Source: Hormiphora californensis (lineage: Eukaryota > Animalia > Ctenophora). From it: a DNA stretch of 64,000 nt. The stretch lies in NCBI GenBank assembly GCA_020137815.1, contig CM035357.1, positions 3,534,001-3,598,000 of the forward strand, read 5' to 3'. The notes under the pieces were generated by a model. That model was given only the letters and a program-made list of their open reading frames with translations. It was not told where the DNA came from and ran no database searches. The first letter of the stretch is position 1; each line of letters starts with the position of its first letter. Below are positions 981-61,634 of the stretch, piece after piece. Position numbers and translations under genes: made by a program.

Positions 981-2533
981 AGGGACGTCGCTGGGCCTTC
1001 GGCCCAGCGCGTACCTGTGCGTCCAGGGGCCTTGGGCGGTAGCCCGGGTCAGGGGGAGTGGGGGGTGACCCCCCCACAGCAGGGTCCAGGCGCAGCCCCG
1101 GCGGGGGTGTAGGGGGCAAGCCCCCGTAAGCAGGGTCCAGGGGCTGCAAGCCCCGGTGGGGGTCGAGGGGGCGAAGCCCCCGGAAAATTTTGACTTTTTT
1201 CGCGATGATTTTAACAATCAAGAGCGGTAGAAAAGTGGAAACAAGAAAGCACAACAGAAAGACGAAACGTGAAACAAAGCGTTTTTTGCAAACCGAATGA
1301 ACATGAACAACGCGCAAACTTTAAAGAATATTGCGCGGTTGTTGTTTAGCGCGTGAACTGCGCGTCACAATCTCGCGCGAAGACCCCTGTTTCAAGTAAA
1401 AAGGAGGACCGCGCCTGAACGGATTTGCAGTGAACAGCGGGCCGATGTGACAACATTTCACTTCTCGTTCTTTACTTGCTGTGATGTTGTCTGTCTTGCA
1501 TTGTGTGACCCTATCTCCCCACGCCATCTCGGTCACGCTAGGATTGTTTCTAATGACAATGAGTCATAAACCAGCAATTATAACACATTGTGCTGCCTGT
1601 TCACGAGATTTATTTAAATTAGTTAACAACTTTTAACAACCCGTTAACCAACTAATCTGCTTCAGTAGCTGCGACTTGATATGTTCTCCATTCTCCGTTC
1701 TCTTGTCCAGAATAATTGCCCACTAGCTGTTCCCGACCTCATGCTTCATCACAGATGGCAAGATTGGGGAACCTTTGATCCGAAATCCGCCGCTGCTATT
1801 CCTTGATCCTCTACAGTAGCTCTCACAACAGACAAATTATTTCAAGGTACAGTTGAAGCTAAATAACTAACATACCATCAACTGCGGTAGTTCATGATTA
1901 TACATTTACATCCAATAACTTTCCCCCAAAGTTTTACTAAATCCTATTTCAATTCAGGTAAACATTGCGACGCCTGTTATACTGGAATGTTTCACCGTGT
2001 GTGATGCCATGATCCCGATCGAGCACTGTTGGTGGAACGTGAACAAGTCCTGTGGATAAAGAACGTTATAAAGATCATTATTAGATCACAGAGGAGAGTT
2101 CTTTCCTAGCCTCGCAAGTGGCAAGCCCGATCTGAACCCCCTCACATATCTCTGTATACTTCCTAGCAGTCCATCACTTTCATTTTCCAACTCTAACTGA
2201 ATAAGAACAATTGACTGTGTCTCGATGAGGTGTTTTATTGATTAAAGAATGATCTTGTGTAATTATTTTCAAATGTAATGAATTGCTGTGTTTACATCAA
2301 TTAAAAAGGACATATTCCAGGCATGACTTTCTTAATTCTTTCCCACTATAAGTAACTCTTCCCTGCTTCCCAAATCCCATATTTCTCTGTTCCCTATCTC
2401 ACTGTTCCCTATCTTTTTCGATTGCTCGCTATCTCCCTGTCTCTCCCCCTCTCTCCATCTCTCTCCCCTTTCTTATCGCCTTGAATATGTCCTTAACGTG
2501 TTAAACATAACGGTATATTAGTGATATGCTTTA

Positions 2534-4418
2534 CCGGCTCCTTTGCACATCTATGAGCATTATAGATGAGTGCGCGCAAGCTTGTAGCAATCCTACGCGC
2601 AGTGGCCACAAGCACTGCGGGAAGGTGACTGGAGAGGTGGCACCGCGCGTTACAGCAATGCGGGGTACGATAGTGTGTCATTTGCCAAATGTGTGGTAAA
2701 CTGAGTTGGGCACCGTGACATAATGAAAGTTGATTTTACCTCTCAGTGGAGACTGCGAACTAACACTGTCCCCTATTCTCTAGGTTTTGAAAAGATTTCC
2801 CACCACTGGAGTGACTGAATGCTACGTCTGCTATTCCTAGTTCCGCCATCTTCAAGAGACAATCTGCAGAATTAGGGGATTGTAATAATATCAAATAGGT
2901 TGTACGAGAGACTGAAGGAGGTGTGGGAGGGAATTTTGTTGTGTTGGAGTTCTATTTGATAATTTCACCACCTCATACACGTGTCATTATAACGACACAC
3001 GTAACTACCCGGGGGAATCAGGAATGGGCGGGTAGTTACGTGTTTCTCGAGCGTTGCTACAGGGCTTGTTGGGTACGGAGGAACTCACCGGATGTATTGT
3101 AGAAATGTGTGGTAGTCAGATAGATCCATGAGAGTAATTCGTGTTGTGATCCACCAACTGGATATCATCGTAGTATCATCTGAAAGATGGCAGGAGGACC
3201 ACCCTGCTCAGACATATCAGCCAATGCAATGTCGTGGCTACGGGCCTCTAACAGCCGAGGTTATGGCAGGGCAGGTCACGGCTATTTCTACGTTTAGACT
3301 ACGGGATTTCCCGTATTACACTATGCGATCGTAACCTCGGCTGTGAGAGGTTGGCACAAGGACTAATGATAGTCCCCCCGTAGTTGGTTAGTTGGTAGAG
3401 GGTGAAAGAGATGTACAAGGAAACACATAGAAAGAGATATATATATATATATTGAAAAGAGTGAGACTGGCGGTTGAGGGAAGGATGGGACAGTAATAGA
3501 GGTTTAAAGAGGTAGGATATAGGTGGCAGAATATGTTTGTCTTGCCTGTTACAGCCGGGTGTGGATGATATTCTCTCTCGACTGTCTCTCTGTAGTCTGT
3601 ATACACACAACAGCCAGTGGTCCAGAATGCCCGCTTACAGTTAGTTGCAGTTCCCTAGGAGAACGTGGGGGTTAGGGGTGGGCTATTGAATTCTACGCCC
3701 AAAAAAAAATATATATACAGTGTGTCAATGTATTGTAAATTTAATACGCAGATCAATTTTGGAGGGATGAGGGGTATCAATTCAGCGGAGCAGCACAACA
3801 CAACTCTTTGACAAACTTACAGTTGCTATGTGCTTGGGTGCCATGGTCCGTTGTTTTATATGTGTTCTATTTGATATGTTGTTTGTGTGTTTCGGTGTTG
3901 ACATGATGTTGTAGATCAGTAATGCTATGAGCGTAATGGAAGTGATGTGTTAAATGGTGGGATTAACGTTAAATGGTCCTGGTAATGGGGGTACAGTCGG
4001 ACCCCGATTTAACAGCACCCTCGGAGGAAATGGTTTTGTCTGCTAAATGGGGGTGTCCGCCAAATCGGTGTCTGTCAAATAGGGTCCGAATGTATTGGGT
4101 TTGACAAATGTAAATACACGGGGAGACTTAAAATGCATGGGTATATAAAGATTGTTAAAAATATAGTGTTTGATGGAATGTAGGTCGGATGGGGGAGGGC
4201 TACAGACATCTCTGATGTGTTTGTAGTGGGGTCCTGTGATTGTAACACCAGAAAGACAGAAACTATACCATGCACTGGTACCCCGCAACACGTTATACCT
4301 CCACTGAAAGCAGGCCACTCATTCAGCTAGCTGCCACCAACTAGAGGTAACCTTGCAGTGCGTCTGGAGATAGGGGGCCAGCCATCAACACGAGGAGTAG
4401 AGGATCGGGGGGGGGGGG
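2534..4418 (+). repeat. Left terminal inverted repeat arm (~1.9 kb)
   Basis: Reverse complement of 21398-23552. The outer ~400 bp and inner ~1 kb match closely by eye; the middle part is diverged. Confidence 0.9.
3994..4092. mobile_element. Tc1/mariner-type MITE (TA|CAGTCGGACCCC family) in the left arm
   Basis: TIR CAGTCGGACCC...GGGTCCGAATG flanked by TA. Mirror copy at 21729-21828. Confidence 0.8.
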
Positions 4419-4968
4419 TGCTAGGAAGTGCTGCCCGATGCTTTAGTGAACTGAGGGAGATAGATAGGCCGTGTTAGGGTATTGCAGATTACTCCATCAA
4501 ATCACTGTTTCATACAGTTAATTTAATGCTGTGTATCACACACATACAGGTACAACCGCCTGGCGTTATAAAAAATACCCCCCAAGTCTACTTTAGTTCC
4601 AGATATCGCGGAGTGCTAAAATTCAGTACAGTTAAAGACAAATAAAAACTTGATCAGAATTTTTCCAGCACGGCAATAATTCACAGTTGCTATGGTAACT
4701 GAAGTGGTAACTATCCGGACTGACTGGTTAAAATTCATTCGAAAATACGAACATACTTCCACCTTAAAGCAAGAGTGGAACGCCGTGTTTTCTCACAAAA
4801 GAAGATAATGGATAAACGTTGAGTATTATCAAGACCATTGCTATGGTATCGAACATTTATAAGTCTGTATCGTTCATTAGTTATAATGATGTAAAAACTA
4901 ATATGTTCATTATTGTAACTTCATCCAAATTAATCTGCAGAGGTTGCAAAATCATGAAAACTACACAC

Positions 4969-7900
4969 CTGAAGAAGGACCGAGAATTATCATCGTCATC
5001 ATCATTATTGTTCTATCGATCGCCACGTTGGTAGTGGACTGTGGTACTAGGTCTTGTTGCTGGAATAATGGAAAGCGTGGAAGAGTATGCGATCTGTTAA
5101 TTGATTATACCACCCGTGCTGGGATCGTCTTTGCTTACCCAGTTCCTCTCTCACGCAGGGCCATGCGCTTAGTGTGGTGCATGATAATTTTAACCCACTT
5201 TGGCTCTTTCTAGATGAGCTAGTACGATTAACTATAGTGCTGAGAAACTTCACATAGACCCCTATTACATACAGACATTGAGAATGGCAAGTAGCTAGCT
5301 CATTCTTATTTAATTTTTTATGATGCCAACAACATACCTTAAAGAACCATTCAGTCATGTGAGTATACCACTTCGACACTGCTATTCCAGCCTCCGTTAG
5401 TCCCCCTTTGGCATAGGCAACCTTTGCCAACTTTAGAACACCCTTAACTGAAGATGGAAATTTACAAATCAGATTCTCTGGAAACTTGGTGATCAGTAGC
5501 AGTGGTCACTGGTCATCCGACATAATTGCCATATCTCGACGTGAATTCTCGTGGCATTCGACAAGAATTAGCAGGCGTTCAGATGCTGTGCTATGTTACA
5601 ACATGTGAAAGCCTGCCAGCACCCAAGATGCACGTGCATCTGAACGCCTGCTAATTCTTGTCAAATTCCACGAGAATTCACGTCGAGATATGGCAATTAT
5701 GTCGGATGACCACTGTAAGTAATTGCCAAATGGACATTATGGTCGAGCTATTCACAACTGTATAGTAAAAAGGATTGGAATTGGATCCAAAACAAATCAT
5801 AAAAATGTTTGTGAACTCAAGACAGTTTAGACGTTCTAGTTGTGAGTAGTGCGGCGGCAGATCTCCAAAAAATGTTTAATACTCCCCTGCCAAGAAGGGA
5901 CGCAGAGTGTACATAGTGCACCCTACGAAGTACGCTGTGTTTAGATTGTATTGCGTGAATAATATGAATGTATATATACATATATACACGTATATAACTT
6001 ACACATCAGCATCTGGTTAGCTTGGATTTCATTGGCCTTGTTCATTTCGTCTACCACCTCTTCTGAAAAATTCCAATATCATAATAATGATATGTGTCCT
6101 ATACATATCTACATTTAACCCTTTGGAGACGATAAGCCCCCTGTCGACAGAATTCTCTAAAACTTTCTGGAGACACTCACTTTGAACCTACTTGAACGCA
6201 GGAAAAAGAATTTTGGTTCTACCACCTGTATTTCTATTGGGTCACCTGTGACCCAATCGTCCCCTAACGCTAAAATAGGAATTGAGATTTTGCCGCTATT
6301 TTGCCCCATAACTCGAAAACCGTTCAATTTAGACCCTATGTTTGTTCATAACACTTATATAAACCCGGCCATTCTGCACAGTTTGCACACCCTATGGGCC
6401 TCTCTATCTCATCTGTAGCCGATTTTAGAATTTCAAAATTGGCCGAGATGAAAAATTTTCTGAAGGAGCACGGATCTCAAAATTTTTTTCATCGACTCCC
6501 TAAGATGTTGAGATAACAATGATGGAGTCGGTTAGTCGCTAGCAAATGTTTAAAAAATGCCGTTTTAGACTTTTATCGGGGGCCATTCCTTTAGAAATGC
6601 TCGTAAAATGCAAATTCCTGTTTTAGCATTAGGGGACGATTGGGTCACAGGTGACCCAGCACTTTGAAGGCCTCTGAGAGGCACAAAATTTGGAATATCA
6701 CCCTGAAACTTTACCCCGGGGTAAAATACACACTTTTCTTGCATTTTCCAAGTCCATTTTAAGTATACTCGTACCAATTTTGAGATATGGCCATTAAACT
6801 ACCCATTTTGCCTACCAAATGCACTGTTTTAGCCCTGTTTTCCAAAGTCGACAACTTCAGAGGCTCAAAACGACCTCAAAATGCTAGAAAAATGTATGTT
6901 TCAACCCTGGAAACGATTTAAAACTTTCAAGTATGGTCTAGAAAGACGCTATACGGGTTCAAAGTTGTGGGTCACCTATGACCCAATCGTCTCCAAAGGG
7001 TTAAAGATAACTGTGACCGTTATTAGTGGCTTACCTCTTATATCCCACATCTTCTTCTTGGATGCGTTTATTAGCTCCCGCACCGTTGCAGAGGTCCATC
7101 GTTGCTCTGAAATAAATTATGCAATGAAGAAATTGTAGTATTGAAAGGGAGAGTATGTCGGTCTTCTTTTCACCCAGAAGTTTAATTTCAGTCACTCTCA
7201 TATTTCGGCCCATTATTTATATTGGGACTCATTAATCATTTGAGCAATCCAAAGTATACGACCTCAGGGAAAAAAATTTCCCACCCGAATGAACGTTGAA
7301 TGAACGCAAAAACGGGGCTGATGGCTGATACTCGATGTATTACTATATTATATTCCAACTAGCGCACCCATTGGGTGCGCCTCAAGTAAGGGCTTTTTGA
7401 TAACCCACCCGGCTTCGCCGGGTGGTTCTTTTTGCCCCTTTCAACGGTTGCCATGGCAACTGAATTGGTAACTATGGGGAATGGCCTGTTAAAAGTCATT
7501 CGAAATATTAAGAAACTTCCACTGGAACTTCAGAAAGTGTGAATAACAGCTTTACAGCTTTCGTCATATGAAGTGTTTTATGAAGGAGCACTGTCGCTTA
7601 GATACCGCTGAACGAACGGCCACCACTTCGACGTTCATCTCCAAATTATAATAGAGATTCCCTTACACACAGTTGTGTGCAAATTGTACACATATCCACG
7701 CGTTAAAATTGGGAGGATGTTACGATTGATGGGCAAGGTTATTGTTGTGTGGTGTGTTCCTGCTTAGTCGGTGCTATAGTGATCTACTAATGAACTGCAC
7801 GTGGACATGGAACGAGGTTGAACTTGAATGAAGTGAACGAAGCCAGTCGAAATATCATGCCGTAGGTCATAATAAGTACATACCAATAGGCAGGTTTACT

Positions 7901-8791
7901 TCTTTACGTTTGTTCTTCTTCTGTTGTTTTTTGGGTGGCTCTGCTGCCTCCAAATCGTCCTCGCTGCTCCTGGCCCTATCCACCTCATTTTCCCGATCCC
8001 GAGTGTTCCTATCCATATTGACCTGGAAGAATGAATTATAAAATGTTGTGGTCGAGTCTGAAAGGGTTGCGCTTCTGGGTTATATGGCATTGGTAGTTAA
8101 CGCAACATTTCTAGATAGGCGTAAATGTAATTGTGAGAGTACCCACCGAGCTATTGCCAGCAATGCCAGTTCTCCTTTGGATGCCAAATTTCTCCTTCAC
8201 CTCCATCTCCCACATTGTCCAACCTAAGTTTGTCCCAGATCCACTAGGTTTGTTCTACAAATGGGGTCATAGTTGTAGGTGAATATGTCATAGCACTGGC
8301 AAGTGCCCCGGGCCCAAAAGGCGGGTGCGGTGGCGCAGCCCCATCCTTAAACAGGGGGTGTGGGGGCAGAGCCCCCACCTTAGAAATGCCTTCATTTACT
8401 GACGAATGCACTTATTACTAATCCAAATATTACTAATATTAGTTAATAGGTACAGTCGGACCCCGATTTACCGGGATGCTCGGGGAAAAGGGGTTTGCCC
8501 TGTAAATCGGGGTGCCCGGTATATCGGGGCAAAATATCGTCAATTTCTTATATCGGGGTAAGTTTATCCTCCCGGTAAATCGAGGTTCCGGTAAATCGGG
8601 GCCCGGTAAATCGGGGTCCGACTGTACATACATTGATCGCCTTTTGCAACACCATCAGGAAAGAAGATAGGGCCCTCAAATCCTCTATGGTGACGATGTG
8701 CCCTGACCCTCTACAGAGGTCTCGCCAGAAAGTCATGACGGTCTTCCTCCATACTTCGAGCTCCTCCTTTGAAGGTGTCTGACACCAACTC
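4969..8791 (-). CDS. Transposon-encoded protein with two MADF/Myb-SANT-like domains (spliced; 5' exons probably extend to ~9780; 3' end uncertain)
   Basis: Phase-compatible GT-AG exons 8791-8632, 8254-8147, 8022-7884, 7106-7035, 6062-6003, 5447-5338, 5209-5139, 5093-4969. Motifs: KPSGSGTNLGWTMWEM, QRWTSATVRELINASKKKMWDIR, RERGTGSHTLPRFPLF. Confidence 0.7.
5510..5712. mobile_element. Hairpin MITE in an intron
   Basis: ~77-bp near-perfect inverted arms at 5510-5586 and 5636-5712. Confidence 0.75.
6119..7000. mobile_element. Non-autonomous piggyBac-type element
   Basis: TTAA duplication (6115-6118, 7001-7004), 15-bp TIR CCCTTTGGAGACGAT, internal GGGTCACCT(G/A)TGACCCAATCGTC repeats. Intronic. 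Confidence 0.88.
7359..7425 (-). mobile_element. Helitron-like 3' end signature
   Basis: Minus strand shows GC-rich hairpins (CCACCCGGCGAAGCCGGGTGG, GCGCACCCAATGGGTGCGC) ending in CTAG|T. Adjacent 7445-7520 resembles 4685-4762. Confidence 0.4.
8453..8624. mobile_element. Tc1/mariner-type MITE (CAGTCGGACCCC family)
   Basis: Perfect TIR CAGTCGGACCCCGATTTACCGGG, TA duplication. Confidence 0.88.
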
Positions 8792-9481
8792 CTGAAACAA
8801 TGTTCTCTTTTATATCTGTAGGACTTAATTGTTGCTCTATTGGATACCCATCATCACAATTGTTACTGGTTAGATCAGGCATATCTTTTGGAAAATCGTT
8901 CTCAAATATTACGCGAAGGGTCGGAATGGGTGCATGTGTCTCCCTCTCGCGTATTTCTTTCTCTTAATCCTCTTCATCACTTAGCCCTCTACGACAACTC
9001 CCTATTATGCTACTCTCTAGCTTGCAAATCCATAAAACATTATTTACATACAAACATTTATAATGCTCCTGCTCAAACGATATGGCTATAAATTACAGAC
9101 ACCCCCTAGAGCGATTGAGATTGTTAGACCCATATACCATAGCATTTTCCCGGATCGCCCAACCACCAACGTCAGCTGGCAGTCGAAGGGTACGAGCAGC
9201 CCCTGTGTATATTACTTACAGATCGTAGGACTCCCTAGAGAGGTCTTCGAGCCATCCCTGCTCCGTAATCCTCTTAACTCGGGCCAATGTGGTTCTTGGT
9301 ATCTTTTTGAGGCCAGGGAGACCCACATCAAATACCTACAACCGATTTCATGTGTCAAATACAGTATTTTTTTTGTAGTCTCTACAAACTAGATTGTGAA
9401 GAGGTTGGTTGGTTGTCCTACCTCGTTCTCGTTCAGATAGTCATCCAGTTCGCCTATCTGCTTATCACCCAATTGGCTAAT

Positions 9482-9840
9482 CTGCAAAGGATTCCATACG
9501 TCAAATAAAGTAAATGAATAATCATGTTTTTTGTAATACTCGGTACAAACTAGATCATGCAGATGTTGGTTGGTTATCTTACATCAGTTTGTTCGTTGTT
9601 CGGCTGGCTGTCACTGTCCACTTCGCTCGGCTGCAAAGGATTCCATACGTCAAATAAAGTAAATAAATGATCATGTTTTTTGTAATACTCGGTACAAACT
9701 AGATCATGCAGATGTTGGTTGGTTATCTTACATCAGTTTGTTCGTTGTTCGGCTGGCTGTCACTGTCCATTTCGCTCGGCTGCAAAGGATTGCATACGTC
9801 AAATGAGGTAATTAAATTTTCAATTTTTTGTACTACTCGG
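9482..9840. repeat. 149-bp tandem repeat, each full unit containing an intron plus a mini-exon
   Basis: Units start at 9482, 9631 and 9780; a diverged unit lies at ~9335-9481. Confidence 0.85.
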
Positions 9841-11323
9841 CACATTTTACGCACAATTTATCACATAACAAGGTCACACAAATAAAATATAACTTTGTCC
9901 CGCTTTTAAGCTGAGAGGTGTGAAAGTATACACAGTTCACATCATCGGTTTCTTAAAGCGGTATAAACAATACTTTGAGATAGTGACATAACGTCCATAG
10001 CATTCGATGCACAGAAACGAGGAAACTAGACCATACAGAGGTTGGTCGGTTGGTCCCGGTGGCACAATGTGAGGAATCTAGGAATGGCATTCCTTCCGGC
10101 AAGTCAGCTCTGTTGACCTAAATTTCGGCAAGATTTTAGCCGGCGACCATGTTTAAATTTCAGGATAGAAACAATCCTTGTGTTTCAGTACACATTCGTA
10201 TTTTTCACAATTGTGCGAAGTTTTGGGGACACATGCCTCCATTTGGTCCTTTTAAATTAAAAATGTGGATGAAATCACCAGAGATCAGTTCTAACTTCAT
10301 TGAATCTGTATTTTAAAAAATCGGCATGCCGATTTTTCTTCCTCGAATATTCCTTAGGAATGGGGAGGGAAAGTTGACGATTTCCTGCCGGAAAATACAA
10401 AAGTTGAAATTTTCTAAATTAATCAAGTTTTAGCACTAACCCCACTAATTTTGGGACGCTGAATCACGTGAGCTACTTTTTAATCACCTCAGAGGTCAAT
10501 TAAGTGTGCTAATTGGCATAATTAACCGGTAATTAGCAACTTTTTAGAATGGGCTATTACTCATGTCATTGCCCACTATCCCCACTAATTTTTATACGCT
10601 GAATCACATGAGTTACTTTTCGAAGTTCTCCGGGGTCAATTAAAGGAGCTAATTGGTATAATTGGTCGGTAATTGGTAAAATTTAACAAGGATTGTTACA
10701 ATCGTGAAATTGAAAAATCGGCAACTTTTTTGTTATTCTCTGGCCATTCCCGGCAGCTTCAAATTGGCGTGCCACCGGGCGGTTGGTTATCTTACCTCAA
10801 AGTCGTAATCGTTCTCGCTGGTTTGCTCCTGCTCGACAGCCGATTGGCTTGTCGCCGGGCTTGAGAAACTGAATTTGTCAAAAAAGGATTGTCTCATTTT
10901 GTGAATAGAGTTGGTTGATTAAAAGTTGCAAGAATAGCGATTTTTTGAAGTTTTTAATTTTCACGAGCTGTGATATATGTTATGTGAATGTGGAAATATA
11001 AATATTTTCGAGCGCGCGGCGTAAAAAATGCAGCGCTCGGAATATACAAAAAGTTGAATTGGCCGGCCGCTCCAGAGGAAAAAAATCAATCTGGGTGTGT
11101 TTAGCGTGGGCGCGATTATAAAATTATAATCTGGGTGCCTTGAGGCCCTGCTCTCAAATGTGTGGAGAATTGGAAACAAACTAAACCGGCAAACAACGAT
11201 CCAGTTGGTTCACACTCTCGTCCATTCTCGCCTAGACTTACTGGACTCTGGAGCAACCCTCGACAAAAAGATATGAACCAGAGGGTCTGGACAGTGAGCC
11301 GATGTTGTATATTATGTATGTAA

Positions 11324-11501
11324 GGGGCGATTCAAAAAGGACGTCCAAGAATTTTGGTCATTTTCTACCCCCTCCCCCTTCTTCCCCCAGTCCAGGGCTG
11401 TCCGAATCTGGCAGACACCCTCCCTCCCCTGTCCGAGTTTCGTCCACCTATATCTCTAAAATTCAGTAAAATTTTTCTTCAAAACCTTTTTGAATCGCCC
11501 C
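11324..11501. mobile_element. Tourist-like (PIF/Harbinger) MITE
   Basis: TIR GGGGCGATTCAAAAAGG, TAA duplication (11321-11323, 11502-11504). Confidence 0.82.
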
Positions 11502-11612
11502 TAAGGGTGAATTGAAGTTGAGAGATATTTAAAGGCGAGCATTGAGAGATATTTAAAGGCGAGAAGTGCCCTACATACCAAGACATTTAAGAGTGACTTA
11601 TTTGTTTATTAA

Positions 11613-12914
11613 GGGTACACCTGGCGTTTTTCATCATCGAGTGCCCAACCAAATGACTTCACCAGGGTTTAGGCCATACAAAATGGACCTCAAATATGCA
11701 ATTTTAGCCCTAAAGTCGAATTCATATTTTTGCTACAGCCTATTTTCAAAGTGGCGTTTTTTCAATTTTTGGTGGAATTTTTAACCTCAGGACCACTTTT
11801 TTGAGATAGAAACATTAAATTCTTGGAATTTGAAGAGAATATAAAGGTAAATAAGCCCAAAGAAGGATTTTTGAAATGGAGCTAATTTATGGCCATGAGA
11901 ACGGTTTACTTTTTTGCTTCTTTGACACGCTGGCTGAGAATGTTCCCATGCTTCATTAGAGATGAAAATCGGGAAATAGTTGCTCAAAACGATTATCTAT
12001 GTGGCCCAAAAATTTTGGAACTTTCCCGTCAAAGATGTGGTGTACAGAGCTTGTTTTGTGAAACCCATCTTTTTGAAAAAGAGGGAAATTCCCTGTATCT
12101 CAAAAACGGATGATCGTAGAGACCTGCGACCAAGCTTAATCGATTCAGAAGGTCCGATTTTGGGGGGGTCTTCTGAGAGACATTTTGCTCCTACTCCAAC
12201 CGTTTTTGCTGTAATTGCGAAAAAGCTATCAGCAAGTAAGGGGGAAATCAGCCCGAAGCAGGCTACTGGAATTTAGTTGTTCCCCCTTTTCATAGAATTG
12301 GTTTTTTGCAAGTACAGCAAAAACGGTTGGAGTAGGAGCAAAATGTCTCTCAGAAGACCCCCCCAAAATCGGACCTTCTGAATCGATTAAGCTTGGTCGC
12401 AGGTCTCTACGATCATCCGTTTTTGAGATACAGGGAATCTCCCTCTTTTTCAAAAAGATGGGTTTCACAAAACAAGCTCTGTACACCACATCTTTGGTGG
12501 GAAAGTTCCAAAATTTTTGGGCCACATAGATAATCGTTTTGAGCAACTATTTCCAGATTTTCATCTCTAATGAAGCATGGGAACATTCTCAGCCAGCGTG
12601 TCAAAGAAGCAAAAAAGTAAACCGTTCTCATGGCCATAAATTAGCTCCATTTCAAAAATCCTTCTTTGGGCTTATTTACCTTTATATTCTCTTCAAATTC
12701 CAAGAATTTAATGTTTCTATCTCAAAAAAAGTGGTCCTGAGGTTAAAAATTCCACCAAAAATTGAAAAAACGCCACTTTGAAAATAGGCTGTAGCAAAAA
12801 TATGAATTCAACTTTAGGGCTAAAATTGCATATTTGAGGTCCATTTTGTATGGCCTAAACCCTGGTGAAGTCATTTGGTTGGGCACTCGATGATGAAAAA
12901 CGCCAGGTGTACCC
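11613..12914. mobile_element. Foldback element with TTAA duplication (Kolobok-like termini)
   Basis: ~610-bp near-identical inverted arms, ~80-bp spacer, TTAA|GGGTACACC...GGTGTACCC|TTAA. Confidence 0.88.
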
Positions 12915-13165
12915 TTAATGTATTATATATCGCCAGGGACGTGCGTGGTGTACCAGGAGTGGTGAATTATGCAGCCATTCTCATTGTGTCGCTCTCCCAT
13001 TATCTCCGTGTCCTAACACAATGGTTATGGTATACCCGCACACGTGTTCCCTATATTTTGTTATCCCAGCCAGATGCGTATTTCAATGTAATCGCTTCCA
13101 TTGACATCAACACTTTTTTCTACAAGTTACTCCAATTTACTAGTATCAATAGTTATCAATCTCTC

Positions 13166-16835
<3,670 letters not shown>

Positions 16836-16838
<3 letters not shown>

Positions 16839-16997
16839 TCGGACCCCAATTTACCGGGCCCCGATTTGCCGGAACCCCGATTTACCGGGAGCATAAAGTT
16901 CCCCCTATATGAAAAAATAACCGTAATTAAACCCGATATACCGGGCAAAAACACTTTCCCCCAGCCTCCCGACTCCCGGTACATCGGGGTCCGACTG
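16836..16997. mobile_element. Tc1/mariner-type MITE (CAGTCGGACCCC family)
   Basis: TAGTCGGACCCC...GGGGTCCGACTG|TA. Confidence 0.8.
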
Positions 16998-17052
16998 TAT
17001 CGTCAAATGGTGTATGGTGGAGCTTAGTCTACCCTGTATTTCGGCCTCTACC

Positions 17053-17280
<228 letters not shown>

Positions 17281-18393
17281 CCTCTCCCTTGTGGTCGGTG
17301 TTGTTTAGTTATATTTAATAGTATACGTACTAGTTAAGGATATTACAATGCAACATCTTCTGATTGCATGTGTCACAGTGGGAGAACTGTGGTCAGAGCA
17401 TTGGCCTGGAAGGTTTGCATTCAATTACCTATTTATATTTGTAGATGATGAGGAAAAGAACTGAGGTAACATATATATGGGCAGTTATTTTGGTCTATTT
17501 TGCTTTTTATTACCGGCTGAATTAAATCAATCAATTAAAGTAGCAGACAACTTCTGGTTCATCTTCCTGTAGTTTTCGAAACTTTAATGCTGATCTGTTT
17601 ATAAGGAATTGCTTTTTCTTACTGGCTGAATTAAATTAATCAATGGCCTTCTAAGCACTGAAGACCCGACAACACACCGCCGTCTCAACCTATGCCGTTT
17701 TGTTATCGGTTATACCCGGAAATTCGCCAGTTCCAGCCCCACCAGCGCACTAAACTACTACATTCTCCCCAGGATACAGAATGAGGAAGGAGAGGAAATG
17801 GTCCGCTCTATAACAGGATGATAGAAGCATACTAGCCCTGTTAGATGACAAGGGGGTTACTAGAGACATGGTTGCAGTGTATCCCGGCTGAGGAGAAAGT
17901 TAGTCTGTGGTGTAGGGTCTCCTCCCAACTCCCTTTATTTCTCTTCATAACATGATGGAGGAACAACATTGTGACAATTATATATTATAATTATTATGTG
18001 CGACTAATTAGCAGTGAGTTGTCATGGTGGCATGTGTGTGGTATTACATCTAGAAATTTATTTATTCCAACCTGTTATTGTGAACATATTATAGTTTGTT
18101 TTGTTCAAACCGGGGAGGGAGGGAGGGTCGAACAAGGCAACCAATTTCTACCTTATTACCTAAATATTTCGCAGCCGATAGTTAATATGTAATACAAAAA
18201 TTAAGAAACCTAAAATGTATTATATAAATAATATTATTTGGTGACCAGATAAACATTGGAATATAATGACGAAAAAATTATGAAATTCATAAAAATTTCT
18301 CCGATATTCTTAATTTTAGGCTACGAAATTTTTAGGTAAAAAGGCACAAAGTAATACTATATATATATTTATAATAGATATTGACTGTTCAGC

Positions 18394-21389
<2,996 letters not shown>

Positions 21390-21397
21390 GCGCCGGA

Positions 21398-23552
21398 CCC
21401 CCCCCCCCCCCCGATCCTCTACTCCTCGTGTTGATGGCTGGCCCCCTATCTCCAGACTGCACTGCAAGGTTACCTCTAGTTGGTGGCAGCAGCTGATTGA
21501 GAGTGGCCTGCTTTCAGTGGAGGTATAAACGTGTTGCGGGGGTACCAGTGATGGTATAGTTTCTGTCTTTCTGGGGTTACAATCACAGGACCCCACTACA
21601 AACACATCAGAGATGTCTGTAGCCCTCCCCCATCCGACCTACATTCCATCAAACACTATATTTTTAACATCTTTTATATACCATGCATTTTAAGTCTCCC
21701 CGTGTATTTACATTTGTCAAACCCAATACATTCGGACCCCTATTTGACAGACACCGATTTGGCGGACACCCCCATTTAGCAGACAAAACCATTTCCTCCG
21801 AGGGTGCTGTTAAATCGGGGTCCGACTGTACCCCCATTACCAGGACCATTTAACGTTAATCCCACCATTTAACACATCACTTCCATTACGCTCATAGCAT
21901 GTACTATGAACCACAACATCATGTTTTAACCACTGAAGACCAACACATATAATGAACACATATAACAACACACTGGACCATGGCACGCCAAGCATCCATA
22001 GCAACTGTAAGTTGTCAAAGAGTTGTGTTGTGTGCTCCGCTGATTGATACCCCTCATCCCTCCCAAAATTGATCTGCTGTATTAAATTTACATACATTGA
22101 CACACCTGTATATTATTTTTTTGGGCGTAGAATTCAAATAGCCCACCCCTAACCCCACGTTCTCCTAGTGAACTGCAACTAACTGTAAGCGGCATTTTTG
22201 GACCACTGGCGTTGTTGTGTTATACAGACTACAGAGAGACAGTCGAGAGAAAATATCATCCACCCGGCGTTGTAACAGGCAAGACAAACATATTCTGCCA
22301 TCTATATCTACTCTTAACTCTTTACTGTCCCTCCTTCCCTCACGCCAGTCTCCCTTTTCATTATATTATTTCTCTTTTCTCTTGTTTCCTTGTACATCTT
22401 TCACCCTCTACCCATACCACGGGGGGGCTATCTAGTCTTGTGCCAGCGCATGACCTCCCGCACGCGATAGAACGGATGGTATATCTTAGGGGCCTATCGC
22501 TAGTATTTCCTGAGCCTCTCTCGCTTAATTGAGGCATCTTCTGACTCCTCTTCATCACTCGGGTTAGCCAGCCCGTTGCTGGCAATTGTGCTGCCCTAAT
22601 GAAATAGCATACTTGGGCATCAAAGCAATTATCACTTTTCTGATCCACACATATTCTACATATACTTCTTGTGTTCATGTTCTGTTTCCTGTGTGTCATC
22701 CTCTGTAGCCCCTCTACCAACAAACCACACTACGGGCCTGCTATCTAGTCCTTCGCTGCCCCTCTCACACCCAGTTACGCGCATAGTTGCTACGAACCCC
22801 ATCCGTCACCCGTCTCATCTAGATTTAGCCCTCGCCATCACCCTCCCTCCATAACCTCACTGTTCGAGCCCGAGCCTCTTGACCTGCCCTTGAAGCTGAT
22901 TTCTGGAGTGGACACCCTGCCTCTTTCGATGACTATCCCCGCATGATCCTTATCAACACGGATTTCATCACACATCGACCACTAGCTTTCAACACGTGGT
23001 CCTCCTACAAAGCCCTGCTAGCAACGCGAGGGACAGAAACCTCTACCCGTCCACTACGCGCACTTGTTCCTTGACTTCCCTCCCGACTAGTACAGTATGT
23101 GTGATTCACGCTGTGAACCGTAATTAACATAGACCAACACAACACAACCTTCCCCCTCCCACCCCTCCTTCAGTCTCTCGTACAACCTATTTGATATTAT
23201 ACAATCCCCTAATTCTGCAGATTGTCTCTTGAAGATGGGGCGGAACTAGGAATAGCAGACGTTAGCATTCACGTCACGTAGTGTGGGAAATCTTTTCAAA
23301 ACCTAGAGAATAGGGGACAGTGTTAGTTCGCAGTCTCCACGAGAGGTAAATCAACTTTATTATGTCACGGTGCCCAACTCAGTTTACCACACATTTGGCA
23401 AATGACACACATGTACCCCGTATTGACTGCCGATCGCCTAGCGGGTGCCACTTCCAGTCACCTTCCCGCAGTGCTTGTGGCCACTGCGCGTAGGATTGCT
23501 ACAAGCTTGCGCGCACTCATCTATAATGCTCATAGATGTGCAAAGGAGCCGG
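21398..23552 (-). repeat. Right terminal inverted repeat arm (~2.15 kb)
   Basis: Reverse complement of 2534-4418. Inner boundary is the C-run 21398-21412, matching the G-run 4407-4418. Confidence 0.9.
21729..21828. mobile_element. Tc1/mariner-type MITE in the right arm
   Basis: Mirror image of 3994-4092. Confidence 0.8.
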
Positions 23553-24763
23553 TTAGCAAGTAACCATTTACAAACTCGTTGGTTGAATGGAACAAAGCCA
23601 CAAGGTCCCGGGTTCGAATACCGCAGCTCACAACATTTTGCCCGGTCCATTTAATAATAGATATGCCCATTTCATTGTCTCGTGGATCATTATGCAGATC
23701 ATGGTGAGCATATACCATGTTCTCTCTGATTATTGACCCCGGGTACGCTTGCCAGCGCTGTGATACCTCAGATTTCAAATCTGAGCATCACATCTCATTG
23801 AGCATGTCTTAATTAGCTAAATCACGAAGTTTCATCCCGATCGGGTGAAAGGAAGGGGGTTAACCGGGTTGAGCGTCCTGGACGCACGGGCCCTTGGTAA
23901 GTGTGTGTAAAGCGTGCGCGCCGCCACGCTGACATTGGGGTGGTTATCGTGGGGCTCTGCGTCCAGTACGCACACGGACGCGGGGTACTCTCTCCTACCC
24001 TTTACACCAGTTCTGGGTTGCTTGCGGAGTAAACACAATAATCTACAGCGCGCGCGGTGTGCGCGGCCCATAATTGCGTAGAAAAACGAAAGTTTTGGCG
24101 TGCGCGAGCTCAGTTTGTACAAAACGCTGCAGCGCGCTGAATTTAAAAATTTTTCAGTTTCACGGAAAAAAATTGAGCGTCCATGGACGCTTGGACGCAC
24201 GGTCAGCGACAATGTTAGCAATGAAAGGCACCCAGATTTTAACGTTTTCCAAAATTCACACCCCGCGCCTGACGACGATTTTTTGAAACTGCAAGAAAAA
24301 TTAACGCGCGCGCTGTGAGGACGCGCAAAGTTTGTGCCGCGCAGTCTGTTAGAAATCCCAGTTGTCAGCAGCTATTCCCGCAGCGCGAGCGGAATAACAG
24401 CAGAATGGCTGTCGATCGATGACAGCGAATCTGATTCGCACCGACCCGATCTCAGTTATTATCAACACGGGGTCGGTTCGGACTCAGAAGAGTGATTCAC
24501 CCAATCAGATTCTCCTTTTACCGATTAACAAATTAAAACAATTTAGTTTATTGAACCCACGACCAAATAAACGAAGAACAAATAAATTAAATCGTGCTTT
24601 CTACAAAAGATGAAGATGATTTTAAAACAGAAAAGCGTCCCATAAACATTTAAATAAACACACACAGCACTGTCCCACTACTCAAGACAGTCCCAGTGTC
24701 CACGAGTCTGAAGACCCAGGGTGTTTATCCAGATCTGGGAGGGTGATCATAAATCCCGCAAAG

Positions 24764-25886
24764 TTATTCGTAGATATGGGGGCTCATGGTCTGTTTGTAC
24801 TCCTGAACCTCGTTTTTGTCGAACCACAGAGCGATCTCCTTCTCGGCACTCTCCACACTGTCAGATCCGTGGCAGATGTTCCTTCCAAGGTCGACACAGT
24901 AGTCTCCTCGGATGGAGCCAGGCTTGGAGGCCAGGGGGTTGGTCTCTCCCCAGCATGCTTCGGCCTGAAATCAGAATGTTAGAGACAACAATTAGAGGGA
25001 GATAGCGACTGGGGGAATGTTTCTCAGGGTTTAGGGAGTTTCAATGTTTGCGTGAGGTCTCATAGGTGTTTAAGGTTCTCATCAGGGGGCAGACGAACGA
25101 GACTAAATTATAATCATAGACCCACACACTAAAAAACCCTTCCGAAAGGAATGGAATCAGGAAGATAAATTCTTTTTGCCCTAAATCCCAATTTCACTGA
25201 GATTTCACTGACCTTGTTTGACAACATCGAGTCCACCCCACACCATACAGACAACAGGTCCACTAGTCATGAACTCAACAAGTCCAGGAAAGAACTTCTT
25301 GGTCTTGAGGTCTCCGTAGTGCTCCTCCAGGAGCTCCTTGGATGGTGTGGTTATCTTCATTGCCAACAGCTGGTATCCCCTCTGTTCGAACCTGTGAGAG
25401 AAAGGGAAGTTTGGTGTTATCTCTGCTCGAAAACTAAAGTCGAATTTTTTAATCAAGGGACAGGGGGCCGCGCATTCAAAGAGGTCGCGCGGCGTTGTAT
25501 TTGCGCGTGACAATCGAGATCAAGTTCCTGGCAATCTTAAGACTTGAACCCGGAAGTGTTGGAAAGATAATTTTAAGACCTTTTCAACGCAACCAAGATC
25601 AAGTCTTTATCTTATCAGGAAGAGGAGGTATGAGCGAAAACATTTAGCACACGCAAAAAGACTTGGTTAATGCGCAGCCCCCTGTCCCTTGATTAAAAAA
25701 TTCGACTATAAATTTCCCTTGTTTTTCCTCAATTGCGGTGAAAATATCCCCCGGCAGAATATTCTCGATCGCGCTGAAAATCTCCAACCCCTCTCTGTTT
25801 TACCTCTTGATGATGTCTCCGATGAGTCCTCGCTGGACGCCATCAGGCTTGATCATGATGTAAGATCGCTCGGATGAGGGTGCCAT
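24764..25886 (-). CDS. NME: Nucleoside diphosphate kinase (group I NME), 3 exons
   Basis: Exons 25886-25804, 25391-25213, 24964-24764. Motifs [34 protein letters not shown] with the active-site His. Confidence 0.96.
25052..25125 (-). ncRNA. Putative box C/D snoRNA, copy 1 (NME intron 2)
   Basis: Terminal stem GTGGGTCT/AGACCTCAC, C box ATGATTA, guide GTCTCGTTCG, C' box TGATGA, D box ATGA. Confidence 0.75.
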
Positions 25887-26096
25887 GCTTGATGTGGGCT
25901 ATTACAGAGAGAGCGGGGTTAGATTAGAATATTGGGTTAGGGGGGTGTGGTTTGTCGAAAAATGGGGGAGAATGGGGTTGAGCAAGGAAGTGGTTTGTAG
26001 GACGGAGCAGTTCAAACAGAGCAGTTTATAGACGAAACAAGAAAGGGTGTCGTTTTGTATGTTTAAAAACAGTAAACAACAGAAACAGTTATTAAT

Positions 26097-26689
<593 letters not shown>

Positions 26690-26854
26690 TTAGGAATCAC
26701 AGTATATAACAGTCAAACTCTAAATTCATTGAACAGACACAGAAAAAATAAAGTGAAATCACAACACATAACAAACATAATTATATTTTACAAATCAGAA
26801 AATGCATACACAAGAAGAATAAAAACTCTTAAAACAAGCCCCGATATATCTTAA

Positions 26855-29800
26855 TTAGTCATTTGAAAAGCGTTCCTGCGGAGCCGGATCCTCCTGGGAT
26901 AACTGGAGGGAGATAAAAAGGGTTAGAGAGCTGAGAATCTGAACCAGGTAGACGGAGGACAAGGTGAAGGGTGCTCTCCTTCTGGATGTCTGAACCAGGT
27001 AGGAAAACGGAAGCAAATCTTATAGAGTTCCGGTGTTTGTGTGAGGTCTCATAGGTGTTTAAGGTTCTCATCAGGGGGCAGACGAACGAGACTAAATTAT
27101 AATCATAGACCCACAAATAATGTCACTAATCCCTTACTAGAGGAATGAAATCAGGAAGATAAACTCCTATTATCCTACCTACAATACAATGTTGCTATCT
27201 AATAACTAACCGTTCGTCTAGATCGTATTCGGGCACATTTAGGGCACGTTCCAGTGAAGCAAGCCTTGTGGAAACAAGTCCAGCACATTTGACATTGAAA
27301 CACTGTATTCAGCTGGAACGGGTATATCACTTCTTTCTGAAAAATTAATCGTTACAGTCGGACCCCGATTTACCGGCATGCTCGTGGGAAAGGGCTTGCC
27401 TGGTAAATCGGGGCCCGACTGTATTTCCCTGAAGTGGGGTATCGAGAGGAGGTTTAGAGGCGATCTCAGTTCTATTTTTCTTCCAATTCCGTGAAAATTG
27501 AAAGGACAAGATATAATAATCTAAGGGAGAAAAAAAATTAAACTGCCATGTTCACCTACCCTTTCGCAAAGCTCACATATGAAGCCTTTACCCCTGCACA
27601 ACCCACAGTTATCAACGTGCTGCAGCCAGCCGGTCACAATGGGCCTCAGGGATTCAATCATAGTCCTATCCTTCACATTACACAGATCCTGCAGGAAATG
27701 AAAGAGTGAGATCATGGGGATTGAAATTATGAGATATGGAGAGTTAATATCAGGAACCGACCGAAACAAGTAAACTACCCATCAGAACTCGTGATTTAGG
27801 TCACGTGACTGGTTATCAGCCAATCAGGGACCATTATTTCCTGATTCGGTCGGTTCTTGGTTAATATTTACTGTTTGTGAGTTCTCATAGATGTTTAAGG
27901 TTCTCATCAGGGGGCAGACGAACGAGACTAAATTATAATCATAGACCCACACAAACAATTGGACAAGTCTGGGAGTAGGACGGTTTATCCGGACTTGAAA
28001 ATCATAAACCGTCCGTTTCCTACCCGGGAGGGAGTGCCACAAGACAAGATGTGGGACTCCCTAGTAGGGAGGTGGTGCCACAAGACAAGATGTGGGATCC
28101 CAGGAGCTAGGAAGCAGGAACCGACCGAATCAAGTAAACAACCAATCAGAACTCGTTATTTAGGTCACGTGACTGGTTATCAGCCAATCAGGGACCAATA
28201 TTTCCTGATTCGGTCGGTTCCTGCTAGGTGGTTTCTTACCTCGAGTGAAAAGAGTTCCGGATCATTGTAGATGTGGCCTCTAATGGTAACACTACCTAAC
28301 AGGTCCTTCCCATTCTTACATGCCCTGAAATACAGTGGTATTGTTGGACAAGGAAGGAACAGAACTGGAGGGGGGGGGGGATCATGGAGGTAGTAAGCGA
28401 CACTATCATGTTATGTACTAAAGATGAGTATGATACCACGCTAGTGTCTCCTTCTGGGGCAACTAACCTTAAATATTCGTTGAGAAAGAACAGCTGGTAT
28501 CGTAGTGCTCGAGTGTATTTTAGCTCACTGACACTCTTATACAATGCGCTGTTGATATCCTGGACACTGTACAGCGGTTCAAACATCATCTTATCTGAGG
28601 AGGGGGTGAGGATTATATAACACTGGAGCTCTTCTCAAGCATTGATTGGAAAGATTGGGAGTTTTGTGGAGGGTCTCATAGGTGTTTAAGGTTCTCATCA
28701 GGGGGCAGACGAACGAGACTAAATTATAATCATATGACCCACACAAACATATATCATTCTAACTAATTCAACTTACCTAGTAGCTCGGCAGCAAAGTTAC
28801 TGACTCTTTGCTTCCTAAAATCCCACTTGTGTAGGATTCTTGCAGGGATGAAGGCCGACTGTTCGTGATGACATGAATGGCAGAAATATTTTCCTGGAGG
28901 GAGTGTAGAGGTGTGTTAGAAATAGGAGTGCTATAATAGCCAAGCAAGAGGGAGTAGAGGTGTCATAGAGTCATGCGAGGGATAGGAGTAGGGTAGAATT
29001 AGATACAGATGGGGAGAGGTTTCGAAAGGGTAAAATCAGGTGAAAAGGAGGATACCAACTATGAATTCCATGGTTTCACTACGACAAACTAACCCAGTAC
29101 ATGCCAGTAGACACACTACACTAACCTAAATAAGCGCAATACCGGAAGGTCCCCGCGAGACTTGGTGCAATTTTCATTCCACACCCGGCACATCTAAACC
29201 CGCATCTCTCCATCAATTTCTTTCTTGTGGTAGGAGGGTGGAGATGACATATAATCTGGGCCCGGGGAGGAGCCCACTCCATTGTGCCGCGGAGTTTTAG
29301 TCCCAGATCGGACTGTGACCGGGGCATTGATTGTGTTCGTGTTTTCTCCGAGACCAACCAGTCAAGTTCGGCACTTTCCTGAAAAATAGCTGTTTTAGGG
29401 TCAAAAAAGGACATACATAATGTACATGCAATCTGTTGTGAGGCACTGTCTGTAATATCGAGCACGCAGCTTCGGAGAGTCCAGTCTTTTATGACACAAC
29501 AATTCTCACCCCACAAAGATGAAATTCAATCGTTTTTGTCCAATCTTACCTCGGCTGAAAATGTAAAAGCTGCGTAGATGTGCCTTGCAATAACCTGTGG
29601 ACTATTTTTATCTCCATTCTGGGTCCTTGCAAACTTCTCTAACACAGTAGTGAAACTGAGAGAATCTCGTTCTGTGGCGCCTCGTCCAGGGAGGGTGGCT
29701 GGCATGTCGGTATCTGCCACACTGACCCAGTCAGACAGGTCACCCGCTGATTCTGTTCTAGGGAGTGGGAGGTGGTTAGACAAGTCACCCGCTGATTCTG

Positions 29801-31145: not shown

Positions 31146-31247
31146 AATCTTCTTGTAGACCCCCTTCGATTATCTGCGGAGGGCGAGGGGTTATTAGGGG
31201 GGTGAAGGGGTTCGTAGGAATGGCAGCTGTGTGTTAACTAACTGTTT

Positions 31248-31321
31248 GTGAGGTCTCATAGGTGTTTAAGGTTCTCATCAGGGGGCAGACGAACGAGACT
31301 AAATTATAATCATAGACCCAC
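31248..31321 (-). ncRNA. Putative box C/D snoRNA, copy 6 (5'UTR intron of the Rubicon-like gene)
   Basis: Identical to copy 1; lies inside GT-AG intron 31364-31174. Confidence 0.75.
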
Positions 31322-61482: not shown

Positions 61483-61554
61483 TGCGATGGCCGGGAATCG
61501 AACCCGGATCAACTGCTTGGAAGGCAACTATGCTGACCATTACACCACCATCGC
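61483..61554 (-). tRNA. tRNA-Gly(TCC)
   Basis: 72 nt, GCGATGG/CCATCGC acceptor stem, anticodon loop CTTCCAA, GGTTCGATTCC T-arm, downstream T-run. Confidence 0.95.
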
Positions 61555-61634
61555 TCTTATCTACCTCCTTCCCTATATTGGATTTATATGGGTTTACTTT
61601 TAGAAAAATGTGGAGAATATTTGCCAAAAGTCAG

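Follow-up and report, generated by a model that had tools for sequence, protein, structure and literature searches.

A probable ~21-kb PIF/Harbinger transposon with 1.9-kb inverted ends and an intron-rich transposase gene

Results

A probable large PIF/Harbinger element

The window, that is, the whole 64,000-nucleotide stretch of DNA analysed here, probably contains a ~21-kb, low-copy, cut-and-paste PIF/Harbinger transposon, which comprises 1.9-kb TTA-flanked inverted ends, an intron-rich transposase gene, two predicted genes (A and C) and a Nup93 fragment (Table 1). That the element is one mobile unit, as claimed by an earlier sequence-only reading, is supported by the TTA on both sides, a third flank starting with TAA, a bridged inner junction and a Harbinger-type DDE core, but neither an empty site nor a whole second copy was seen among the public contigs listed, which were compared over 21320-24980. 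The element is likely an oversized variant of a known superfamily, and a three-component lineage remains unproven.

Table 1 Features of the element, in window coordinates
Feature	Position	Strand	Basis or remark
Left TTA, putative target-site duplication	2531-2533	+	Same TTA at right end
Left TIR, 1,885 bp, terminus CCGGCTCC	2534-4418	+	Public contigs over right arm follow left-arm version
TA-flanked MITE in left TIR (presumably Tc1/mariner-type ends)	3994-4092		Same insertion at 21728-21828 in right TIR
Gene A, predicted, 13 modelled exons, ~400 aa	5135-10868	-	Phase-compatible GT-AG chain picked by eye
Gene A exons 1-7	10868-10796, 9779-9732, 9630-9583, 9481-9422, 9335-9220, 8988-8848, 8791-8632	-	Splice model
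Gene A exons 8-13	8254-8147, 8022-7884, 7106-7035, 6062-6003, 5447-5338, 5209-5135	-	Splice model
Foldback MITE in gene A intron	5500-5715		Sequence
TTAA-flanked element, CCC..GGG ends (presumably piggyBac-like)	6119-7000		Sequence
TA-flanked MITE	8453-8624		Sequence
Element with 11-bp TIRs and 8-bp duplication (which we take to be hAT-like)	10055-10779		Sequence
TAA-flanked MITE, GGGGC ends, Tourist/Harbinger-like	11324-11501		Sequence
1.3-kb TTAA-flanked foldback	11613-12914		96% self-inverted; 15/15 terminal match
PIF/Harbinger transposase	13166-16826	+	Pfam; splice model; 31-33% identity over 328-341 aligned residues to P0071, P0073, P0001
Transposase exons 1-8	13166-13260, 13379-13477, 13916-14044, 14173-14254, 14468-14588, 14811-15064, 15578-15614, 15880-15967	+	GT-AG, in frame
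TA-flanked MITE in transposase intron 5	14648-14744		Sequence
Foldback in transposase intron 8	15972-16135		Sequence
Transposase exon 9, broken at glutamate motif	~16441-16635	+	Frame reading
Transposase probable exon 10	16739-16826	+	Gene model
TA-flanked MITE	16836-16997		Sequence
Decayed host Nup93/Nic96 fragment, likely captured	17630-17818	+	Pfam Nic96, PDB matches
Gene C, predicted, 234 aa, no stop	18394-21100	+	Splice model; exons 18394-18520, 18700-18894, 19210-19289, 19463-19625, 20962-21100
Right TIR	21398-23552	-	Middle ~22310-23150 garbled; true length likely ~1.89 kb
Right TTA, putative target-site duplication	23553-23555	+	Sequence

Inverted ends and target sites

The inverted arms of ~2 kb described earlier are both real, and their homology stops at TTA followed by CCGGCTCC and at GGAGCCGG followed by TTA, just as had been proposed. 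The left arm measures 1,885 bp. The 2,155 bp seen for the right arm are due to its garbled middle, in which left-arm 3320-3400 is rendered twice. A self-comparison of the window gave inverted matches of 92% (2533-2947/23553-23134) and 90% (3352-4418/22445-21401), and gaps account for most of the differences (24 gap columns against 4 substitutions in the first block, 80 against 12 in the second). All 11 arm indels among the rows listed convert the right arm to the left-arm version in public contigs; 35 further indel rows lay beyond the listing. Since these contigs agree with the left arm where the right arm differs, the TIRs are likely near-identical and ~1.89 kb long. The window as a whole resembles error-rich long-read sequence, garbled at 19900-20660 and 22310-23150.

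The same MITE occupies the same position in both arms. It is thus likely that, once the MITE had inserted, copying from one end to the other produced the long TIR or keeps its two arms alike. Members of this MITE family also lie at 8453, 14648, 16836, 27345 and elsewhere in the window. The terminal 8-mer occurs in the window at 2534, 23545 and two unrelated sites only; the inner arm ends have neither this 8-mer nor, in the window, a TWA duplication. The left TTA is preceded by T rather than C, and a homopolymer error is possible there. The termini begin with C, which counts against a PIF/Harbinger element in that the first TIR base of this superfamily is usually A or G, a usual rather than obligatory feature, as is a short TIR (Han 2015, PMC4482050).

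Public contigs and read depth

The contig comparison covered four runs (X3, X4 and X7 were left out) and 21320-24980, which is the right end of the element only. One contig (X1 contig 4) leads from the terminus at 23553 into at least 255 letters that begin TAA when read with the terminal T, and the first 12 letters of this flank are absent from both strands of the window, implying another insertion site. TWA thus stands at 3/3 observed terminus flanks, against a background of 3.6% per site. A further contig (X5 contig 21) has 29 unaligned letters beyond 23553. Among the contigs listed, none spans the outer right junction of the window itself, and the depth of X1 and X2 in bin 23534-23656 equals the amount that the arm alone gives. 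Sample S1, to which runs X1 and X2 belong, may be the source of the window itself, so that neither run provides independent evidence.

The inner right junction at 21398 is bridged, by 78 + 35 letters, in X5 contig 17, which belongs to a short-read-type assembly of a second sample from a second study. The arm contigs listed begin at 21398-21403 in all four runs, as expected for an arm joined to two different interiors. A long-read chimera or fold-back could be suspected of having produced the inversion of the arms or fused pieces that do not belong together, given the garbled stretches and the indel-dominated arm differences. However, the bridging contig and the breaks at the inner junction argue against such an assembly artefact, as do the non-palindromic interior and the TTA at both ends, and we regard it as highly improbable.

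It is also conceivable that the window holds a single rearranged copy, namely a Harbinger with ordinary short TIRs, one end of which was swapped in a single event for the mirror of the other, with no family transposing with 1.9-kb TIRs. The shared MITE does mean that, at some point, one arm served as the template for the other, and most PIF/Harbinger TIRs are shorter than 60 bp (Han 2015, PMC4482050). Against this, the third flank, which starts with TAA, exists; contigs of the whole arm, and the inner junction too, turn up across two samples from two studies that show substitutions of their own; and the presence of the duplication on both sides implies that integration postdates arm formation. 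We regard a single rearranged copy as very unlikely.

The 13100-19600 stretch is present in 6/7 listed public runs, from two studies, and no RNA run among those listed holds it. The arm/interior depth ratio is 2.1-2.4 from the X2 contigs (~2 for S1), a weak hint for a two-armed unit, as depth is no copy number. The ratio of 2.5-5.4 in S2 allows extra arm-only or deleted copies. All four runs have no cover at 22427-23041, a hole that proves nothing.

Transposase gene

The Harbinger DDE transposase gene recognized by the sequence-only reading was confirmed by a DDE_Tnp_4 exon at 14807-15070 (E 2.2e-6) and by the in-frame splicing of exons 1-8 into 301 aa with both catalytic aspartate motifs. In exon 9 the glutamate motif cannot be read, owing to an in-frame stop or to frames that are offset, although the length and the G/L/W positions are kept. 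Lacking a readable catalytic glutamate, the window copy is probably non-autonomous, unless this is a read error. The transposase is 31-36% identical to Harbinger/HARBI1-like proteins, with PF13359 in 9/9 first matches, and its closest proteins sit on 1.5-2.3-kb Logan contigs. Together with P0001, P0071 and P0073 it forms a clade of 4 rows, with SH-aLRT support of 99, in a quick tree of 63 rows built from search matches only. Judged by these comparisons, the DDE core is Harbinger-type and falls in a distinct clade.

Two other assignments were rejected: ISL2EU (the flanks are TTA, not AT, and no THAP or YqaJ match was found in the ORF stretches scanned) and Pangu/NuwaI/NuwaII, whose targets are ANT, CWG or C-TNA-G (here the flanks are TTA and T precedes the left TTA).

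Predicted genes A and C and a Nup93 fragment

The two accessory genes proposed earlier could be modelled as spliced genes in the proposed orientations, but their domain labels gained weak, mostly non-significant support. The gene A model has acidic repeated micro-exons at its N-terminus and one internal stop in exon 6, and its start was not found. Donor motifs number 18 on the minus strand vs 6 on the plus strand, in a test of little power: for the transposase gene, the counts were 8 vs 6. No MADF or Myb Pfam match was found in 135/170 ORF stretches or 18 exon pieces scanned, so that neither the label "MADFx2" for gene A nor "Myb-like" for gene C could be upheld. Against a local MADF HMM, the best domain of gene A scored -1.6 bits, below shuffles; with hhalign the shuffle counts were 1/60 for residues 155-250 and 39/60 for residues 290-385. 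Self-similarity does not support the "x2" either, because 490/500 shuffles match the internal-repeat score of the supposed MADF pair. A homologue search with gene A exon 7 scored 0/5 candidates, and 31 Harbinger loci drawn from part of the metagenome data showed no similarity to genes A and C or to the window DNA. Harbinger partner proteins are known to diverge strongly (PMC9179366). From its position and motif resemblance, predicted gene A likely encodes a DNA-binding partner.

Gene C exons 2-3 show a weak MADF-like pattern. The gene scored 4.8 bits with the local MADF HMM, above 300/300 shuffles, but only 0.6 bits with a second HMM, and hhalign against MADF gave 6/60 shuffles at best. An extra exon at 18576-18621 was dropped for breaking the frame, and an ESM Atlas search with exons 2 and 4 returned nothing usable. 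The garbled 19900-20660 may conceal additional exons.

The Nup93 fragment had been overlooked by the earlier reading. It matches Pfam Nic96 with E 1.2e-6 and 27.7 bits, below the whole-protein cut-off of 34.2, and human Nup93 chains in the PDB with E 1.5e-5. Gene C could be captured cargo as well.

Size and unity of the element

Taking out 12 listed nested elements leaves 16,686 bp, in agreement with the ~17 kb estimated before. The modelled coding sequence amounts to only ~3.1 kb of the 21-kb element and nested elements to at least 4.3 kb; the size would thus be owed to introns, nested elements, cargo and long TIRs, and little to extra coding sequence. All six listed insertions in the gene A and transposase spans fall in modelled introns (~0.09 by chance, with exons chosen by eye), which is a weak hint for a unit. 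The terminal 20-mer had 0 matches in metagenome contigs, and an Rfam search gave no match inside or adjoining the element.

The arms might instead be termini from another repeat or deletion family that happens to bracket a dead or domesticated Harbinger gene pair and host DNA (gene C and the Nup93 piece), in which case the 21 kb would not move as a unit. The lack of a second full copy, the S2 depth ratio, the host-derived Nup93 fragment and the host-like introns of genes A and C, with no homologue among the 31 loci, all fit this explanation. Yet inner arm ends without the terminal 8-mer or a TWA duplication, outer ends that have TTA in common, a transposase class that fits a TWA target, the S1 depth ratio and the junction bridged in the second sample speak against it, and we consider it unlikely.

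Discussion

We then propose a model for the mobility of the 21-kb transposon. The spliced DDE transposase would make its cuts at the CCGG termini, probably with help from the product of gene A. The analogy is with Harbinger3_DR-type elements, in which the partner binds the TIRs and the transposase, and the transposase excises (PMC9179366). Insertion would take place at TWA sites with a 3-bp duplication.

It is tempting to go further and speculate that a distinct Harbinger lineage, comprising the window transposase, P0001, P0071 and P0073, gave rise to mobile units of 17-21 kb that depend on two different, degenerate partners of MADF type, with host-like intron-rich genes under selection and 1.9-kb TIRs kept identical by end-to-end copying. 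We hold this to be possible but doubtful. The claim of a three-component lineage was not borne out, as the accessory domain labels failed or barely passed their tests and neither homologues nor a relative with the same layout were found.

If the transposon is what it appears to be, the PIF/Harbinger size ceiling documented in Han 2015 (PMC4482050) would be about doubled and the TIR ceiling nearly doubled. PIF/Harbinger machinery could then mobilise ends 21 kb apart and, in an animal-type genome, carry along both nested elements and pieces of host DNA. Annotation easily mistakes such elements for ordinary host genes, because their genes are intron-rich and their TIRs collapse in short-read assemblies. 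The MITE common to both arms offers a direct test of whether TIRs lengthen by end copying, and if both accessory genes proved conserved and required, they would represent a novel way of partnering the transposase in a two-component system.

Like canonical PIF/Harbinger elements (PMC4482050), the element has TWA flanks and a DDE_Tnp_4 transposase that shows the Harbinger motifs, and its second gene runs in the opposite direction. In Han 2015 (PMC4482050), 214 PIF/Harbinger families average ~4.1 kb, with TIRs of 5-1,042 bp and a longest element of 10,107 bp in the text of Table S1; the present element differs in its 21 kb, its ~1.89-kb TIRs and its C-starting termini, and also in its ~10 transposase exons, third predicted gene and unconfirmed partner domain. 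No Harbinger of ~21 kb was found in the literature, where Repbase, Dfam and most subscription papers lay beyond the search and an earlier entry is possible; neither "Harbinger" nor "PIF" occurs anywhere in a review of giant transposons (PMC6431247).

Three-protein Harbingers are not new in print, since HarbingerS (SET domain) and PHISTA (TET/JBP plus a third protein), Harbinger-group elements with proteins beyond the transposase, have been published (PMC12730594). These are oomycete and rust-fungal lineages, and PHISTA makes TA duplications, in contrast to TTA here (PMC12730594). Membership was rejected given the TTA flanks and the lack of a SET or TET/JBP match in the ORF stretches and exon pieces scanned, which exclude any exons hidden in 19900-20660.

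In size, the element resembles the giant cut-and-paste DDE elements of other superfamilies, which span 10-30 kb, namely the KDZ, EnSpm and Sola-1 elements in Ectocarpus (PMC12477816) and the 16-20-kb En/Spm of Chondrus (PMC6431247). In structure, it is like Turmoil-1 of C. elegans, a 5,024-bp Harbinger with 760-bp TIRs and captured host gene fragments (PMC2572040), in that both have long TIRs with the same foreign insert in both arms and both carry host fragments, in the present case probably captured. Compared with Turmoil-1, the TIRs here have 2.5 times the length, the insert found in both arms is a MITE, and the Nup93 piece lies in the interior, whereas Turmoil-1 captures inside its TIRs.

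Results

Self-comparison of the window bore out that the two arms are inverted copies ending at TTA on both sides, with 92% identity in an outer block of 430 columns and 90% in an inner block of 1,093. The outer homology limits are TTA followed by CCGGCTCC at the left and GGAGCCGG followed by TTA at the right; the inner limit is a G run (4418/21398). As read in the window, the arm middles are ~65% alike, and the right arm exceeds the left by 270 bp. The differences in the alignable parts are dominated by gaps (24 gap columns versus 4 substitutions; 80 versus 12), and left-arm 3320-3400 appears twice, garbled, in the right-arm middle. We aligned public-run contigs to 21320-24980, the right end of the element. 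Contigs of X1 and X2, two runs of sample S1, diverge from the right arm at 23154 into sequence matching the left arm at 2946, and an X1 contig does so at 22308 into sequence matching 3499; among the indels listed, 11 of 11 arm indels change the right-arm version into the left-arm version. These observations indicate that the mid-arm divergence and the extra 270 bp are likely read error, and that the true terminal inverted repeat (TIR) is likely ~1.89 kb with near-identical arms. Of the ~2-kb TIRs in the sequence-only reading, the long inverted arms thus stand, while the right arm's 2,155 bp is likely inflated by garble. One TA-flanked MITE lies at the matching position in both arms, which argues that, once the MITE had inserted, one end served as the template for the other.

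Features of the element and its surroundings
Feature	Position	Strand	Remarks
Element	2534-23552		
Left arm	2534-4418		
Gene A (predicted)	5135-10868	minus	
Repeated units in gene A	9366-9844, 10780-10870		Tandem intron plus micro-exon units of ~150 bp; acidic blocks of 16-24 aa
Foldback element	11613-12914		1.3 kb, near-perfect; TTAA flanks, GGG..CCC ends; presumably Kolobok-like by end pattern
Transposase exons 1-8	13166-15967		
Short near-copies	17511, 17620		Just ahead of the Nup93 fragment; that at 17511 starts TTA-CCGGCT, resembling the left terminus; possibly a relic end, or a chance match (~0.16 expected)
Gene C (predicted)	18394-21100	plus	
Garbled stretch	19900-20660		Homopolymer-run garble following a long ACAG microsatellite
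Right arm	21398-23552		
Right flank	23555-24400		Repetitive in public contigs; tRNA-like B-box near 23610
Host genes	24700-26690	minus	NDK gene and a ubiquitin-ribosomal protein fusion gene, at a distance of 1.2 kb from the element; MITE inside NDK
Two short interspersed repeat families	25045-25128, 27034-27120, 27749-27959, 28115-28225, 28664-28762, 30223-30327, 31232-31341		Intronic; we take them to resemble repeats of pleurobrachiid ctenophore assemblies
Dense host genes	27500-59000		Rubicon, Med23, ribosomal S7/S5, RING protein, JAB/CSN5, ITFG1, coatomer gamma
Three tRNA genes	61483-61868		Within tandem repeats

The window is eukaryotic and its right part gene-dense, with NDK, ubiquitin, Rubicon, Med23 and others (80 of 245 ORF stretches scanned). 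The right flank (23555-24400) gave no Rfam match.

X1 contig 4 runs past the terminus for 255+ letters and, with the terminal T, its flank starts with TAA; since the first 12 letters of this flank are absent from the window, it is a third terminus flank. TWA (TTA or TAA, the PIF/Harbinger target-site duplication) is present at 3 of 3 observed flanks versus a background of 3.6% per site, and a single mirrored rearrangement appears quite improbable. The inner right junction is bridged by contig 17 of X5, from a second sample (S2) and second study, with 78 and 35 letters on either side; we regard an assembly artefact as the remotest reading. Among the contigs listed, arm contigs of all four runs start at 21398-21403. 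Arm-to-interior depth is 2.1-2.4 in X2, with the interior at about four haplotype-equivalents, and 2.5-5.4 in S2; because depth does not equate to copy number and the window may itself derive from S1, these ratios serve as hints. That the arms are separate units around immobile genes seems unlikely. The proposed single mobile unit draws on the TTA flanks, the third TAA flank and the bridged junction; against it, neither the suggested empty site nor a whole second copy was seen in public contigs over 21320-24980. Together, our results describe a real and likely mobile element, an oversized PIF/Harbinger variant.

The Harbinger DDE transposase gene was confirmed: exons 1-8 have GT-AG ends, join in frame into 301 aa without a stop, carry both aspartate motifs and have homologues. 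Exon 9 matches its homologues in length and at the G, L and W positions; it contains an in-frame stop and has no glutamate at the catalytic position, for which mutation or read error is alike possible. An exon-6 query retrieved 2,615 cluster representatives with E-values of 0.001 or less. The proposed phylogeny took the form of a quick 63-row tree without ISL2EU, Pangu and Nuwa reference proteins, in which the model groups with three Logan proteins of intact glutamate motif (P0001, P0071, P0073; SH-aLRT 99; 31-33% identity). The closest fragment found, P0083 (ENA, 100 aa; 67% identity over 43 aa to exon 6), may point to a related family present in a related host.

The element totals 21,019 bp. 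Subtracting 12 listed nested elements (4,333 bp) leaves 16,686 bp, in agreement with the roughly 17 kb claimed; ~3.1 kb of this is modelled coding and ~4 kb TIR, and what remains consists of introns, microsatellites and spacers.

Gene A was modelled with 13 exons (~400 aa, one internal stop, no start found) and gene C with 5 exons (234 aa, spanning the garbled stretch), both as phase-compatible GT-AG chains chosen by eye. Donor motifs on the modelled versus opposite strand number 18 versus 6 and 8 versus 3, respectively, a weak discriminator given 8 versus 6 on the transposase itself. No Pfam match to MADF or Myb was found in the 135 of 170 ORF stretches scanned or in 18 exon pieces. We built a MADF profile of 51 sequences from a Harbinger-linked MADF ORF and its homologues; a scan of 74 of the 83 candidate ORFs had given 7 MADF hits. 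Gene A scored under its shuffles. Gene C reached 4.8 bits, topping all 300 shuffles (best 3.2), and fell to 0.6 bits without six partial pieces, 5 of which score 11.5-25.3 against the reduced profile when held out. In hhalign tests with 60 shuffles each, 1 equalled or exceeded gene A 155-250 and 6 equalled or exceeded gene C 50-135; for the remaining two segments, 39 and 41 did so. Gene A's two supposed MADF domains showed no mutual similarity. The labels 'MADFx2' (gene A) and 'Myb-like' (gene C) were therefore not upheld and remain eye-level resemblances. Harbinger partner proteins are described as diverging widely (PMC9179366).

The garble at 19900-20660 is likely unpolished long-read sequence, and a GT donor at ~20666 suggests a candidate gene C exon buried there. 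A decayed Nup93 fragment between the transposase and gene C indicates that the element likely takes up host DNA; gene C may thereby be captured cargo.

Discussion

We propose a model based on the observed ends, flanks, spliceable transposase, third flank and inner junction in a second sample, from which the steps are inferred. A family transposase would excise and insert the element by cut-and-paste, aided by a DNA-binding partner, likely the gene A product. Insertion would create the TWA duplication, end copying would lengthen or homogenise the TIRs, and the present copy would be non-autonomous. As a joint explanation, we consider this probable. A three-component Harbinger lineage, as first read, is doubtful: two further spliced genes were modelled, but their domain labels were not upheld and the lineage is unproven.

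In metagenome Harbinger loci (L012, L013, L016, L019, L023, L027), MADF ORFs occur in both divergent and convergent orientation to the transposase. Locus L012 carries two within 6 kb (169-552, 5385-5975), flanking the transposase match on either side. DDE and MADF functions can act in trans (PMC13668399).

Harbingers catalogued by Han et al. 2015 are flanked by TWA duplications and have two ORFs; their TIRs span 5-1,042 bp and their mean length is ~4,124 bp (PMC4482050). At 21,019 bp versus 10,107 bp for the longest in Table S1, and with a TIR of ~1.89 kb versus at most 1,042 bp, the element lies above that catalogue in the portions checked. The excerpted texts of PMC9710019 and PMC10027918 add nothing further on Harbinger size, and our literature search found no Harbinger of comparable size; Repbase/Dfam lie outside that search, and larger families may be recorded in supplements. 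In Turmoil-1 the TIRs measure 760 bp and both arms contain captured fragments (PMC2572040), HarbingerS and PHISTA encode extra proteins (PMC12730594), and giant elements are known in other superfamilies (PMC6431247, PMC12477816), the excerpted text of PMC6431247 making no mention of Harbinger. Thus long TIRs, cargo, a third protein and giant DDE elements each have their own precedent.
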